Shown in pieces: positions 33,001-60,000 of a DNA stretch of 64,000 bases (its first letter is position 1; the number at the start of each line of letters is the position of its first letter). The stretch spans positions 832,001-896,000 of the forward strand of contig OY759316.1 of assembly GCA_963662275.1 (NCBI GenBank), read 5' to 3'. The position numbers were made by a program. Origin of the DNA: Candidatus Cloacimonadales bacterium (GTDB lineage: Bacteria; Cloacimonadota; Cloacimonadia; Cloacimonadales; DAONDQ01).

Positions 33001-36000
33001 CATTACTTATCTTCAATAAGGAGTTTTACATGAAACTCGGATTAGTAAAAACTATCTTTTGGTTGCCCAGAATTCTTTGCCTTGTGTTTGCTACGTTTCT
33101 GATCATTTTTTCCTTTGATGTATTTGAGGTGTCGACGAATATTTGGAAAGTTCTAATGGGTTTATTGATTCACAATATCCCAACTTTCGTACTTTATACC
33201 ATGATTTATTTAACATGGAAACGGGAATGGATAGCATCTGTAGTTTTAGCTTTTTTGGGAATTGCTTATATCGTCTTTTTCTGGGGCAAATTCCCTCTAT
33301 ATACTTATTTTTTAATTGTGGGTCCATTATTATTACTTAGTATTCTCTATCTGATAAATTGGATCTACAGGAAAGATATTCGGTTACGACTTAAAGAATT
33401 AAAGAACTTGCCTGAAAAAGGGGAATAAGAACTCTTTGTTTAATTATAGTTCGAATTATTTGTTATTTTAAAAAAATGAATCAATAAAAAAGGAGGAAGG
33501 ATGAGAATTTTCATAATGATCCTGATCGTTGCAATCGTGCTGACGGCATGTACAGCAAACAAACCCAAAGGAGGAATGATCATGACAGCAACGGGTCTGC
33601 AATACGAAGTATTAACACAAGGTAATGGAGCTACAGCTAAGGCGGGTGATAATGTTTCCGTGCATTATACTGGCTGGCTGATGGATGGAAAGAAATTTGA
33701 CAGTTCTGTGGATAGAGGTCAGCCTTTTAGTTTTAATTTAGGCGCAGGACAAGTAATCAAAGGTTGGGACGATGGAGTTTCGGGGATGAAAGTGGGTGAG
33801 AAGAGAGTTCTCATTATTCCTCCTGAAATGGGATATGGCTCTCGCGGTGCAGGTGGTGTAATACCTCCCAATGCCACGTTAAAATTTGAAGTAGAATTAC
33901 TGAAGATAAACTAACTAAATCTTTCTCACTCCTCTCTTTATCGAGAGAGGAGTGAGACTATGGCTATCTCCGAACTAAATCAAGTGATTATCCCATTATT
34001 TTACAAATAAATCTATTGACAGTTGGAATGGAATATGCAAATTAATTCCTCTTGCTTTCGAGGGTCTGTGTACTTGTTTTTTGTATAGTTTTTTGCTATG
34101 CATGATACATGGTATTCTATGTAGTTTATACAAATTCAAAACATATGTGTTAATAAGTTCTGTAAGGAGATCTCCATGAAAAAACTAGTTCTGTTTTTCT
34201 CAATTCTTGTCTTGATGACTTTATCATTGACTGCCGTCAATGTGCTACAGGTTGGCAGCAAGAATGATGTAAGGCTAATTTCAAGCAGTGCAACAAGTCT
34301 TTTATTACACTACGATGTAGATAAAGTAGAAAGTTTTGATATTTCAACAAAAAATGGTACTTTCTCTTCTCTTAGTATTGAGGACTATACCAGTACGAAT
34401 GAGCTTGGAACTCCTGCCTTGCCGTTGAATCGAAGATTGATATCTGTGCCTCTTGGAGCAACAGTAAGTTTAAAAATTTCTAATAGCACATCTCATGAAT
34501 ATAGTTTACAGACTGCTGGGGTTAAGTTTCCGATTATGCCTGCCCAGGCATCTGTTTCTAAGAGCTCTGATCCGGCAACCCTACCTTTTGCATATAAGTC
34601 AGCAGCATACATGTTAAATCAATATACTGATAAACCTCTTATCCATGTGGAAGAACTTGGGATTATGCGTGGAGTCAGATTATTTGCCATAGATTTTGAA
34701 CCGGTGCAGTATAATCCCACCACTAAAATGATTAAAGTCTGGAATAATGCTGATGTTCAAGTAACATTCAATGATGCAGATCTGTATGCTACCGAACAGC
34801 TTCGATTGAAAACTTATTCACCTGCTTTCGAAGGAGTTTATGCAAATTCCCTGATTAATTATGGTCCAGTGAATGATAGAGCTTCAAATCTTCGTTCTCC
34901 GATGGGTTATCTTATCATTTCAGCTCCTGCTCTTTCCTCTACGATGGCAAGTTTTGTTACCTGGAAAAAACAGCAGGGTTACAATGTGACATTAGTAACG
35001 ACTGCCACTACAGGGACAACTACAACTGCGATTAAAGCCTATATTCAAAATATTTGGACAAATGCAACTGTGGCGAATCCTGCTCCCAGTTTCTTGCTGT
35101 TAGTAGGTGATATAGCAGAAATTCCTTCATTCACATCTACTACTACATCCGGACACGTATCAGACTTGAGCTACGCTCGATTAAGCGGAACCGATTATGT
35201 ACCCGAAATGTATTATGGACGATTCTCAGCAAGTACAACTTCAGATCTTCAGAATATTATAGATAAAACACTCATGTTCGAAAAAACAACGATGCCTGAT
35301 AAGACTTATCTAGGCAAAGTAGATATGATTGCGGGTCAGGATGCAACATTTGGTCCAACACATGGTGATGGTCAGATCAATTACGGAACAATAAACTATT
35401 TTAATGCAGCTCATGGTATTACTTCCAGTACATATTTGTATGCTGTTTCAGGTACTTCTGATGCACAAATTATTGCGGATGTCAGTGCCGGTAGGGGTTA
35501 CGTAAATTATACTGCCCATGGTGATTGGGATCGCTGGTATGATCCTACTTTTACAATTGCGAATGTCGCTACTCTTACAAATACAAACAAACCCGCTGTG
35601 ATGGTCGGCAATTGCTGTCTTACAAATCATTTTGATGATACCGTTTGTTTTGGTGAAGCACTCACACGTGCTGCGAATAAAGGAGCAGTTGCCTATATCG
35701 GAGGAACGAATAGTACTCTTTGGGATGAAGATTATTGGTGGGGTGTTGGTGCTAAAAAAACAACCGCTCAGATTACTTCTGCAGGTGGGGTTGCTCCAGC
35801 TTGGGTGGCTAGTAAGATCGGAACCTATGATGCTATTTTCCATGAACACAGTGAAGCATCCACAGATTGGGCTACTTTCATGGGTGCTATGATCTATATG
35901 GGTAATCTGGCTGTTACTCAAGCTGCCAGTTCAAACACAAATTATTATTGGGAAATCTACTCTGTTATGGGTGATCCTTCCCTTTCTCCATATATGGGTG

Positions 36001-57000: not shown

Positions 57001-60000
57001 CTGGTATATTCAGGAAGCTATACGAATAATTCAACGAGCGGATGGATGGAAGTTGCATTAACTTCACCTTTTATCTATAACAATACCAGCAATTTGCAAG
57101 TGCTGATTGTCAAAGGATATCAGTCAACTCTCGTTTCAGGTTATCCTTTGTGGACATATACGACTACTTCCACAAATTACAGGACTCGATTTAATCGCAA
57201 TAATTCATCAGCTCCTACAAGCCTGACTTCTTCATACTACAGGGCTAATATCCGGATGACCATCGTTCCACCAGTACCGAATCCGGCTTATGCGATTGAC
57301 CAGGCAAACCTGGATTTCGGTAATGTAATGATTGGGCAGAATGCGGTTCGTACCTTTACAATTACCAATAATGGCGGTGGTTCTTTATCCGGTAATATTA
57401 CAACACCTACTGGTTATTCAGTGACTCAGGATACGCGAAATGAAAGTGCGAGCATACGAAATACTTTGGCATATAGTGTTATGGCAGGCTATCCTGTTAC
57501 TTTCAATGTTACATTTGCTCCATCTCTTGAGCAGACATATCCTGGTGATATCAGCATTACAAGCAACGATCCTCTGAACCCATCAAATACCCTGGCTGTG
57601 ACCGGTACTGGTGTCACTTCTCAGATAGGTATTCCGATGAATCTGAACATTCAACCTCAAAACGGTAGTTTGTTGATCTCATGGGAAGAAGTACCGAGTG
57701 CAGGAACTTATTATCTATATCGTTCAACCAAACCCTACGGGGTTTATACATGTGTTGCTGAAATTCATACGAATTCGTATATGGATATGGATACTGCTGG
57801 TCAATCATATTTCTATTATGTAACTTCTGATATTACAGCTAAGTGATAAGAATAACCGGACTCATATCAGCGAATTACGGTTTCACCCACTTCATAGGAT
57901 AAGCATCATTCTGTACAAAATCTCCCTGCAAAAGGAGATTCTTGGGATCTATATCATTATCAAAAGCCTGCCATGAATGATCGACATATTTAAACATAAT
58001 ACGCATTGATTTGACTGCTGTTTCTGTATTCCATAACCAGAAACTTAAGGAATGCTCGGAATTGAAAGGACTCATAAATGAAAAGATCAATGACGAATTA
58101 GGTCCAGAAAAAGTGCGGGAAGGTACTTGAATGCTTCCCTGTAGTATGGTAAATCCGGAAGGTAATTTATTCAGGAAACGGTTAAAGAAGGAATTTGTAG
58201 GCACACTACCAAAGACAAGAAGACTACGATTTTGCCAATCAACAGTATCTATTTTACTTGCTAGAACAGTATCAAATTGAATGCCATTTTGTTTGAACAT
58301 ATTAGTTATATTCCCAATTTCTGCCATCTTTGACCCTGATTCCGGTAAAACGATAAGAGGATTTTCCTGGAATGTGCGTTTCAGGCAAAAAACCATATCT
58401 TTTCCCGATAGTTTGCGAATGACTTTATATCCGGGATCGATTTCCAATGATTCGATATTTCCTTTAAGAGCCAGGTGAATTTGCTGATCCATATTCACTG
58501 TATCGACATAGATTGTATCTGAACCCGTTGCATAATTGACAGCAATAGGCACATGCAGCATAAATGGCGGAGATGTTTGTTTCAATACGAAATCAATACT
58601 CTTTCCAGAATGCTTGACATCAGCAAGTGATAAGGAAGGAAAATCCGGTCTGGATAACCATTGCTCAGCAACTTTAGTTAAATCCTGGTTCTTATCATGT
58701 GGATTCTGAGATTGAAGACTACGTAGCAAATCAGTCCATCCTGCATATTTTCCTTGATATTTAGCTATGAAATCCTTGAGTCCAGCAAAGAAGTCTTTTT
58801 TGCCCATCTGGTCATAAAGATTGTAAAAGACCATTCCACCTTTTTGGAAACCAATCACAGCATCGTTTTTCTTTTCTGCAAAGTAGAAGTTCTCCAAAGG
58901 ATAATGATATTGAGGAGAGAGAAAATTAATATCCTGGAGAGCGTTCTTTCGCCATAAATCAGTTTCACCACTCTTTCCATGCATCTCCAGCCAATAGTAA
59001 TTGGAAATGAAGTTATTCAGGATATCAGTCCAGTTCCCTTCAGATGATTTTGCATATATGGCATTTCCCCACCAGCTTCGTGACATTTCATGTCCCAAAA
59101 CGGTTGATGATAATAAGATATCCGATGCCTGGAATAAATTACTCGGGAAGATATACATATCCGGATAGCTCATACCTTCCGGTAAAAAGTTCTCTATCAG
59201 ATTCATGGAAGACCCCGGATATTTTCCAAACAAATTTGTATAATCAACATAATAGGTTTGCATTTGAGTAAGAAACTTGGGAGCATTTTTAGTATCTGGG
59301 GTTTTAAGATAGACTGATAGACGCATGTCACCAACCTGGAGGCTTTTAATTGTGAATTTCCCTCCAAAGAGAGTAACACCTTCATAGGGATATTCAGATG
59401 TCCAAATATAATTATAGTGGTTATCAGCAGATATTTTTATTTCTTCTTTACCGGAGCAAACAAGTCGTGTTGGAAATTTGCAAATTGCAGAGACCTTATA
59501 ATTTGCTAAACCATGACCTGGCGTTGGGTACCAGGCACCAACAGGTAAGTAGATTCCTTCCTTTTCCTGTTCAGAAATTAAGCCCCATTGTGAAGCTTCT
59601 GCTGTCAGGTCAGCATAGTTATACAATACTCCTTCATAAAAAACGGTTATTTCTGATGAATTACTATCTTTTAACAGATGAAAACTCTGGTAACCTTCTT
59701 CATTTTTTTGCAGTATGTATTTAACTTCTTTATCATTTTGCTTAATCGAGCTAATTTTAAGATAGGGAGATAAAAGCAATGAATCCTCTTCCGTGATATT
59801 TCTTGAATACCTGATCTGATCAGAGCCTTTCATGAAATGAATATCTGAAAATAATTCGATACTGATATTGTGACTGATGATTGGTTCTGCGATTGGCATT
59901 GAGTTATTATTATCATCCTGTGCCGGATTTCGATGGATAAGAACTAGGAAATCACCTTCCTTTTGCCAGATCTTTTGATATGATAATTCTTCATTTGGTT

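Follow-up and report, generated by a model that had tools for sequence, protein, structure and literature searches.

The stretch of DNA analysed here, a window of 64,000 nucleotides from a Candidatus Cloacimonadales genome, contains a group of four ORFs on the forward strand whose products end in the same ~70-aa domain (the tag), and the four genes that an initial annotation placed here were found again. The first (34176..41747) encodes a C25 protein of 2523 aa that is composed of a signal peptide, a C25 propeptide, a gingipain-like peptidase, three complete Fn3 domains, ASH/BACON/Big domains and the tag (41532..41747), in which Fn3 strands A-F are predicted without strand G; both the single-domain model and the predicted complex described below are of this copy. 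A second C25 peptidase (41953..46770, 1605 aa) bears a tag at 46555..46770 with 69% identity to the first, and an M14 carboxypeptidase (46812..50126, 1104 aa) bears one at 49929..50126, where the protein ends directly after strand F. The next gene (50231..53080, forward strand) serves as an internal comparison: it encodes an M14 paralogue with 61% identity to the carboxypeptidase over 604 aa that has no tag and whose C-terminus is formed by a T9SS type A CTD (52826..53080; PF18962 / FlgD_ig). The fourth tagged gene (53110..57846) specifies a C25 peptidase of 1578 aa with a tag at 57634..57846. The starts of the second, third and fourth tags were counted by hand from the translations. A fifth tagged gene of the window (4899..10361, forward strand; GH57 / X25 / CBM48, 1820 aa) lies outside of this group and has its tag at about 10137-10361.

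Genome-wide, an independent iterated profile applied to our own ORF calls detected 64 genes with a terminal tag (at least 22 bits, at most 45 aa from the C-terminus), in agreement with the ~60 proteins first proposed; 56 of the 64 scored at least 40 bits, as compared to 60 in the earlier count, which had the same total. None of the 64 is among the 268 T9SS-CTD proteins recognised by a genome-trained CTD profile, as had also been claimed. The tagged proteins have a median length of 1,132 aa and account for 5.7% of the genome. By a crude heuristic, signal peptides were called for 58/64 tagged proteins, 219/268 CTD proteins and 426/2,005 other proteins of at least 200 aa. The 71 signal-bearing proteins of at least 1,200 aa comprise 33 that end in a CTD, 28 that end in the tag and 10 that end in neither, and for 19 of the 64 tagged proteins a paralogue is known that ends in a CTD in place of the tag. 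SprA is present in this genome.

Neither Pfam nor NCBIfam has a family that covers the domain, the best being GH85_C with 10/45 members at E<=0.1, as the initial annotation had held. Terminal position, previously counted in one genome only, extends to others: 40 of 42 matches lie at most 45 aa from the stop among 40 fetched top-scoring loci of 30 genomes, and both exceptions are from family f9, which is SprA-less. The objection that the domain occurs in SprA-less relatives does not hold for that family, where the matches are ordinary complete Fn3 repeats and tags were not found; none of 171 distinct matches is terminal (60 fetched loci out of 264 matches) and, among the listed matches that reach strand F, the G strand comes next. 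A profile search of 1.84 billion representatives was flooded by ordinary Fn3 arrays and is uninformative on the range of the tag; it matched ordinary Fn3 repeats in more than 100,000 representative proteins, with a period of 85-95 aa, i.e. with strand G included, and 4 of 150 proteins had a match at most 15 aa from the end. The protein atlas returned only unnamed or Fn3 clusters.

Fold of the terminal domain

Folded alone, the tag is modelled as an all-beta domain (pLDDT 89) with six core strands that ends at Fn3 strand F. The six strands of the original description are thereby explained as Fn3 strands A-F with strand G absent, and the likeness that had been noted to the Fn3-like module of Clostridium is borne out by PDB 3MPC as a close fold neighbour (Z 9.1, rmsd 2.2, 74 residues aligned). 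The model aligns to residues 3-80 of the 96 in 3MPC, the tag profile spans residues 5-75 (E 1.8e-11), and structure comparison of the model with Fn3 chains gave Z 9.1-9.3. The clostridial modules (PDB 3MPC, 5G56) are the closest solved fold to the tag, at Z 9.1-9.2 and 24% identity, but 3MPC has 16 more residues beyond the end of the alignment, at the site of strand G, where the tag ends. A G-strand motif comes after strand F in 1/57 tags versus 36/54 internal Fn3 domains, and the corner Tyr is seen in at most 7/57 tags versus 47/54 internal domains. Unlike the clostridial module, the tag has lost the Tyr corner and carries an invariant Phe (56/57 tags) before the F-strand aromatic. By sequence and model, then, the tag has the Fn3 topology and the A-F pattern, and lacks strand G and the tyrosine corner.

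The tag profile also matches, weakly, PDB 4GO6, the self-association element of HCF-1, which is a split Fn3. That element is likewise a natural Fn3 built from two polypeptide chains; it differs in being eukaryotic, in deriving from one protein cut in two, in its split position and in not being a many-to-one tag.

A secreted candidate adaptor and its gene neighbourhood

A candidate donor of the missing strand is a secreted protein of ~215 aa (the adaptor), usually single-copy, with no match in Pfam or NCBIfam. Its gene in this genome lies outside of the window on the reverse strand (G000:C1:4186697-4187365); a tagged gene (4187475-4193270 of the same contig) lies upstream of it, and a gene for a protein with a domain, X, and a CTD (G000:C1:4184450-4186681) lies downstream. 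All of the 131 listed homologues carry the motif A|xES.PS..VGY.KY behind the signal peptide, at the mature N-terminus, although they were found with a profile that itself contains the motif. Judged by its sequence, xES.PS..VGY.KY is an Fn3 G-strand motif. An N-terminal motif scan of the genome located it only on the adaptor and on 0/64 tagged proteins, and free adaptors bear no tag.

The adaptor body consists of two tandem repeats. Its model (pLDDT 85) has no clear match in a fold search, the best being RCK-C domains at Z 5.3, a result that does not establish a new fold. In 10 of 38 distinct adaptor genes the adaptor is part of a fusion, preceded in the same chain by a tag or some other Fn3-like region, and in the clearest of these (G039, two in G016, G032, G042 and g2424607 of this genome) strand F runs straight into the donor motif. 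A search for longer adaptor forms gave 4 proteins.

Binding between tag and adaptor is predicted by modelling. The first tag of the window, encoded 3.3 Mb away from the adaptor gene, gave an ipSAE of 0.88 with the adaptor, whereas the best of 3 controls gave 0.00; the score mark is passed by 116/157 solved complexes and 2/215 mismatched pairs, counts that are only rough with the alignments used. Runs showed at least 96% contact agreement, with a partner pLDDT of at least 92. Tag residues 72-79 are predicted to pair antiparallel with adaptor residues 33-23, the donor peptide lying against strand F, and the predicted interface also includes adaptor body residues 110-117, 136-139 and 187-189 and the tag loop 41-52. 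The high score may reflect memory of the fold, as an Fn3 completed by its G strand resembles many solved structures.

Wherever a neighbour could be seen (37 loci), the gene that follows the adaptor is on the same strand and at most 60 nt away, including loci with fused adaptor forms, which themselves have no CTD. This next gene ends in a T9SS CTD at 32/37 loci, whereas CTD genes make up 9% of those in this genome; the partner in G019 and G001 has a tail that is dockerin-like from a motif reading and has no Pfam match. Domain X is fused to the adaptor repeat in one protein of this genome (g697694), and divergent adaptors (G012, G038) are paired with divergent partner N-termini.

Distribution within and beyond Cloacimonadota

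A locus search with an 8-row alignment recovered 36 loci, nearly all of them from Cloacimonadota; a single record bears the label Bacteroidota and another Chthoniobacterales. Among the near-closed genomes of the order, 11/12 have the adaptor, related genomes being non-independent samples, and the twelfth (G036) showed no tag in the fetched matches. No adaptor was detected in the 14 tag-negative genomes checked (five of family f9, four of family f10, G010, G030, G033, G036 and G041). Against a docking role stands its detection in only 34/61 and 66/131 phylum genomes. Tag-bearing drafts with no convincing adaptor match are G006, G020, G021, G031, G046, G047, G051, G052, G056 and G060; contig ends account for the gap in G013, G014 and G054, and the stretches fetched from G006, G020, G046, G047, G056 and G060 do not explain it.

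By sequence comparison, tags and adaptors homologous to those of Cloacimonadota exist in Verrucomicrobiota. The tag profile matches a terminal domain of that phylum at 94.8% (E 5.5e-8), 22/26 fetched matches there are terminal, and adaptor profile matches occur in 5/61 genomes. Each of the three free, full-length adaptors with a neighbour in view has a PEP-CTERM gene next to it, whose product shows no profile similarity to domain X. The TIGR02597 family of the same phylum, the function of which is undescribed, resembles the adaptor in its mature N-terminus (T.PVG[YF]), in having a PEP-CTERM gene next in 10/19 loci (in one case with the motif in a PET variant) and in one distant member with a 171-column alignment to the adaptor (94.6%). 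The core family differs in being longer, and its profile similarity to the adaptor is weak (16%) and confined to the donor-strand region.

Proposed docking, export and alternative readings

The G-less domain, its exclusivity with the CTD, the donor motif, the fusions and the gene order, all seen in sequences or models, can be combined into a mechanism that, as a whole, we regard as probable. The tag would be a socket on the cargo. Export by Sec and cleavage of the signal peptide would bare a free G strand at the adaptor N-terminus, which would slot antiparallel to strand F of the cargo and complete its fold by donor-strand complementation, so that each adaptor would take up a single cargo. Domain X, at the N-terminus of the protein encoded next door, is the most likely binding site of the two tandem repeats, and that neighbour would bear the real sorting signal, i.e. 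the type A CTD in Cloacimonadales or, alternatively, the dockerin-like tail in two genomes and PEP-CTERM in Verrucomicrobiota. In this way ~60 CTD-less enzymes would be held by a single anchor or leave the cell together with it; the adaptor-X contact, the passage of the outer membrane and the final location are the steps that we infer. One adaptor gene for ~60 cargoes would need high expression, a point against this scheme, and the adaptor's codon bias (33rd percentile) is too weak a measure to show it.

Several features are shared with known systems. Subunits of chaperone-usher pili undergo donor-strand complementation, in which the N-terminal extension of one subunit fills the place of the last strand that is absent from the sandwich of another. 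The tag and adaptor are predicted to do the same, with the fusions in further agreement, across two secreted proteins. The tag has an Fn3 rather than the pilin Ig fold, and donor and acceptor sit on different protein types, hence no head-to-tail polymer would form; there are ~60 different acceptors per donor, and no chaperone or usher genes were seen among the genes flanking the adaptor. The proposed analogy with dockerins survives for position and logic and fails for structure and partner. According to PMC8542988, Ca. Stygibacter carries C-terminal dockerins on enzyme classes that bear the tag here (C25, S8 and GH57), and there, too, numerous cargoes attach to one partner with a CTD at its end. 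The tag, unlike these, is an all-beta Fn3 in its model and lacks the duplicated Ca-binding EF-hand (PF00404), and its partner is a single-site adaptor of ~215 aa and no multi-cohesin scaffoldin; the single Dockerin_1 (PF00404) match earlier reported for this genome was confirmed, on another protein than the tagged ones.

As a "second sorting or docking tag", the domain fits the docking side, for which a candidate partner is now identified, better than a second T9SS export signal. It is most likely a docking socket and not the T9SS signal itself; Verrucomicrobiota, too, have homologous tags and adaptors, and SprA was detected in none of the 5 genomes of that phylum searched. We consider it unlikely that the tag is a third CTD class, exported by a PorV-like shuttle, with the adaptor serving only the long-tailed tagged protein upstream. 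Tagged proteins do share with type A CTD proteins a signal peptide, a C-terminal position and SprA in the genome, the tag co-occurring with SprA in Cloacimonadota, and PMC10994853, PMC11285876 and PMC12618676 describe T9SS CTDs as C-terminal beta-sandwiches of ~70-80 aa on such proteins; the tag is exclusive with the type A CTD and swapped between paralogues, no tags were found in the SprA-less family f9, this genome has 4 PorV-family matches over the cut-off, among 14, type B CTDs use dedicated shuttles (PMC12618676), and some tag-rich drafts have no adaptor. Yet type A CTDs have seven strands, the seventh with a conserved Lys (PMC11285876, PMC10994853), whereas the tag has six in Fn3 topology. 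None of 45 tag domains matched Por_Secre_tail (PF18962 / TIGR04183) in Pfam or NCBIfam at E<=0.1, nor CHU_C of type B, and BLAST-clustered neighbours of tag genes included no recurring shuttle-like gene and no recurring porP/sprF-like family, no profile search aimed at PorP having been made. Seven G-less copies are N-terminal or internal, all in proteins without a CTD, and G-less copies stand directly behind the signal region of FGE-sulfatase proteins. The modelled tag was, moreover, a distant one and not from the adaptor's operon, and its predicted partner is a soluble strand donor rather than an outer-membrane barrel.

Very unlikely, in our view, is a tag-adaptor pair for which the neighbouring CTD protein is no carrier, the adaptor repeats self-assembling or binding glycan, or the cargoes staying periplasmic. 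The link from adaptor to X comes from gene order and fusions, the partners of the two phyla have no detectable similarity, and adaptor-like repeats exist inside ordinary CTD proteins (the M14 paralogue of the window, 50231-53080, and locus L340 of G056); the unbroken adjacency, which extends to fused forms, and the matched divergence of adaptors and partner N-termini argue the other way. Most improbable is an Fn3 variant that needs no more than its six strands and serves, with no protein partner, to cap the chain or to bind carbohydrate or the cell surface: the confident model of the tag alone, the many ordinary repeats matched by its profile and the accessory modules of clostridial enzymes as closest solved relatives would suit it, but those repeats include strand G, and this reading leaves unexplained why a separate conserved protein should bear an invariant G strand that is free, the exact F/G-junction fusions and the CTD exclusion.

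The tag-adaptor-anchor mechanism would be a previously undescribed form of sorting or display: the tag and adaptor were found undescribed in literature searches that were thin on subscription journals and excluded supplements, and a search at the level of titles turned up no account of proteins piggy-backing through the T9SS. If correct, the mechanism would add to the C-terminal sorting modules a new class whose partner is named, in uncultured anaerobes common in digesters, would explain the handling of 28/71 of the largest signal-bearing proteins of this genome, which have no T9SS signal, and would give a first function to TIGR02597-like proteins. We lean slightly towards a broader reading, namely a modular display that crosses phyla and is made up of a G-less Fn3 tag carried by dozens of cargoes, a single adaptor as strand donor and an anchor that can be exchanged (T9SS CTD, dockerin-like tail or PEP-CTERM). 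Such a display would be a natural tag-and-catcher, in which a protein equipped with an export signal carries, or offers a docking site to, others that lack one, and the many-to-one strand-donor pair might be adapted as a protein-coupling tool. It probably originated when an Fn3-plus-repeat unit was split between strands F and G, and since some X-domain proteins have a terminal tag of their own, the display may form chains.

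Terminal Fn3-like domains of the putative cargo proteins

Five large genes lie within positions 34176-57846 of the window. Four of their products, all peptidases (three C25, one M14), end in the ~70-aa domain that we call the tag, while the second M14 gene has a terminal type A T9SS CTD instead. When ORFs were called mechanically on the whole genome and an iterated profile was seeded with the four window copies, 64 terminal matches were found, all scoring at least 22 bits and lying no more than 45 aa from the C-terminus; 56 reach 40 bits. These 64 tags are a lower bound, because the divergent terminal tag of a 1573-aa protein (G000:C1:1807860-1812581, on contig C1 of this genome) falls below the score threshold. 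The initial annotation had described the tag proteins as secreted, devoid of the CTD and ending in a domain of no Pfam or NCBIfam family, and all of this is borne out: a signal-like N-terminus is present in 58/64, the overlap with 268 CTD proteins is zero, and a search of both databases returned no family for the domain. For 19 of the 64 there is a paralogue with a terminal CTD instead of the tag, the M14 pair of the window among these. Signal-bearing proteins that reach 1,200 aa number 71: 33 are CTD-ended, 28 tag-ended and 10 neither.

By profile the tag is an Fn3 domain (3MPC, E 1.8e-11). Its model (pLDDT 89) aligns to residues 3-80 of the 96 in 3MPC, with which Foldseek concurs, and the tag therefore consists of strands A, B, C, C', E and F, ending before G. 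After strand F, a G-strand motif is found in 1/57 tags (59 examined, two not parsed) versus 36/54 internal Fn3 domains of this genome; a Phe immediately precedes the F-strand aromatic in 56/57 tags, and the tyrosine corner is lost.

In some proteins, copies without strand G also directly succeed the signal region; most of these continue into an FGE-sulfatase domain, and none has a CTD (G000:C1:2569993-2571192, 3471282-3472433, 3579610-3580713, 2907597-2917574, 144976-148437 and 134760-136091). One subfamily of tagged proteins is small, carries an insert and a helical tail, and is encoded directly upstream of FGE-sulfatase genes (G000:C1:3040593-3042460, 4271105-4274666, 2269172-2271654 and 3951846-3954437; loci L208, L209, L212 and L213). 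The N-terminal Ig-like domain of the adjoining FGE proteins also seems to end at strand F, and the small protein may be the donor of the missing strand, in a second split pair.

A candidate donor of the missing strand

The survey of the neighbours of tag genes found, 110 nt past the end of a tagged gene, the gene of a 222-aa secreted protein, here called the adaptor (G000:C1:4186697-4187365, minus strand), in which a G-strand motif opens the mature protein directly after the signal peptide. Two tandem repeats are present and no CTD; the adaptor has no family match, and its model no clear relative among solved structures. Mostly single-copy, it was found in 31/61 genomes by sequence, in 34/61 by profile and in 66/131 with a broader profile. 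Invariant columns in an alignment of 30 homologues are concentrated in the donor strand, and the motif A|xES.PS..VGY.KY is kept in 131/131 listed homologues. The fetched loci hold 38 distinct adaptor genes, of which 28 encode a free protein and 10 a fusion. Strand F gives way to the donor motif within a few residues in fusions from G039, G016, G032, G042 and this genome, some G042 fusions being more degenerate. Unnamed ESM Atlas clusters with Thermoplasmatota members (0.93 against the adaptor) are a lead only.

Co-folding of the adaptor with the first window tag (41532..41747, plus strand) gave a score of 0.88, the best of three controls giving 0.00; the mark for complexes is reached by 116/157 solved complexes and 2/215 mismatched pairs, and a pass may mirror likeness to solved Fn3 domains, because the complex completes a common fold. 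The runs share at least 96% of contacts, with partner pLDDT of at least 92. In the best predicted contacts, tag residues 72-79 run antiparallel to adaptor residues 33-23, and the invariant tag Phe74 would pack against adaptor Val28-Gly30. The prediction supports binding.

The adaptor is present in 11/12 genomes of the order with four contigs or fewer, the twelfth (G036) having neither adaptor nor tag; among the 11, tags were read directly in 10, and G019 was assessed by score. No adaptor was detected in at least 10 tag-bearing draft genomes. G013 and G014 have a contig end shortly after the long-tailed tag gene, G054 has an adaptor broken at contig ends ahead of a gene with domain X (described below) and a CTD, and the stretches fetched from G006, G020, G046, G047, G056 and G060 give no explanation. 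Since these counts come from related genomes, no co-occurrence statistic is given.

Neighbouring genes and distribution

In 37/37 loci with a neighbour in view, the next gene lies on the adaptor's strand and no more than 60 nt away. It is CTD-ended in 32/37 and begins with a domain, X, in 29/37; the latter count is circular, since these genes supplied part of the X profile, while the CTD count is not. Of the five neighbours without a CTD, two are truncated where the fetched sequence stops and one runs into Ns; the remaining two, in G019 (L252:6057-7589) and G001 (L255:5408-6940), combine domain X with a dockerin-like duplicated terminal motif that has no Pfam match, which may connect them with a cohesin scaffold. 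This genome has a fusion of X and the repeats immediately ahead of a gene that begins with X and ends in the tag, and the nearest large gene upstream of the adaptor is often tagged, with a long basic tail. Domain X occurs in 36/61 genomes and was not found in families f7, f8, f9 and f10. Stand-alone secreted X proteins without a CTD (G000:C1:4183718-4184236, and frames of 140-250 aa in many f3 genomes) are possibly caps or competitors of the adaptor.

The tag profile matches all 61 phylum genomes searched and also picks up ordinary Fn3, so loci were fetched for reading. The terminal position, previously counted in one genome, extends to 40/42 matches (no more than 45 aa from the stop) in 40 top-scoring loci from 30 genomes, a sample biased to strong matches. 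SprA was found in 56/61 genomes. The earlier objection that the domain occurs in SprA-less relatives fails: family f9, with SprA in 0/5 genomes and no CTD above the cut-off, has 0/171 distinct matches in terminal position in 60 fetched loci. Tags in family f10 are confined to G021 (2/16 matches). None were seen in G010, G030, G033, G036 and G041 (30/45 matches fetched), where the 3 near-terminal matches among 22 are all complete Fn3. The f9 genomes (G002, G005, G008, G017, G022) are closed, ~1.6 Mb, without detected SprA or CTD, and hold several Fn3-repeat-rich open frames of 10,000-11,000 aa. In four genomes (L310, L311, L314, L327) a UvrD/PcrA-like helicase gene is directly preceded by the gene of a conserved lipoprotein-like protein of 130-140 aa with one complete Fn3.

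Docking or sorting

The tag also matched one Chthoniobacterales record. In that genome 9/9 related domains are C-terminal, most with a final RFYR-like strand. A profile of these domains aligns with the tag (94.8%, E 5.5e-8) and has matches in 15/61 Verrucomicrobiota genomes; outside the seed genome, 22/26 fetched matches are terminal. The family TIGR02597, picked for search on a presumed resemblance, has matches in 14/61 of these genomes, with a PEP-CTERM gene next in 10/19 loci; its core is weakly similar to the adaptor (16%), one member aligning over 171 columns. The adaptor profile itself gave 6 matches in 5/61 genomes, and all three free full-length ones with a neighbour in view precede a PEP-CTERM gene. 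SprA was not found in 5/5 of these genomes by the model used for Cloacimonadota. That tag and adaptor recur here beside another kind of anchor favours a docking socket over a T9SS signal; of the "sorting or docking tag" first proposed, docking is supported, and a reading as a T9SS signal is less likely.

The underlying chemistry is already known; chaperone-usher pili use donor-strand complementation, and HCF-1 has a split Fn3. We consider it probable that cargo, adaptor and anchor form one docking system. Sec would take all three across the inner membrane, signal cleavage would release the donor strand of the adaptor, which would complete the cargo Fn3, and the adaptor repeats would bind domain X, a contact that we deduce solely from gene order and fusion. 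The destination would be set by the X protein through its CTD, PEP-CTERM or dockerin, and the cargo might pass through SprA within the complex or dock elsewhere.

A tag read directly as a T9SS signal would suit its absence from SprA-less f9, and is improbable given the Verrucomicrobiota pair. Slightly less probable still is a pairing of tag and adaptor without an anchor, against which the constant neighbour gene speaks. A tag without any partner is very improbable.

Published accounts cover a dockerin-cohesin complex in Ca. Stygibacter (PMC8542988), the seven-stranded, PorV-bound type A CTD (PMC11285876, PMC10994853), type B shuttles (PMC12618676) and PEP-CTERM (PMC1569441). Neither tag nor adaptor was described in the literature library searched. 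Employing the known chemistry for a cargo tag that is many-to-one, relies on an adaptor and works with exchangeable anchors is, to our knowledge, new.

Some further features of the window were recorded. The CTD-bearing M14 gene (50231-53080) encodes a complete Fn3 and, after it, two GWNL-type repeats that resemble the adaptor repeats by eye, possibly the unsplit ancestral arrangement. A ChaN/Tiki haem-binding domain is fused to an M1 peptidase domain at 57875-60808 (minus strand). A 30-bp tandem repeat of ~11.5 copies (61522-61857) is open in both directions, and short arrays of 7-11 bp lie at 3154, 15897, 15955 and 31870.
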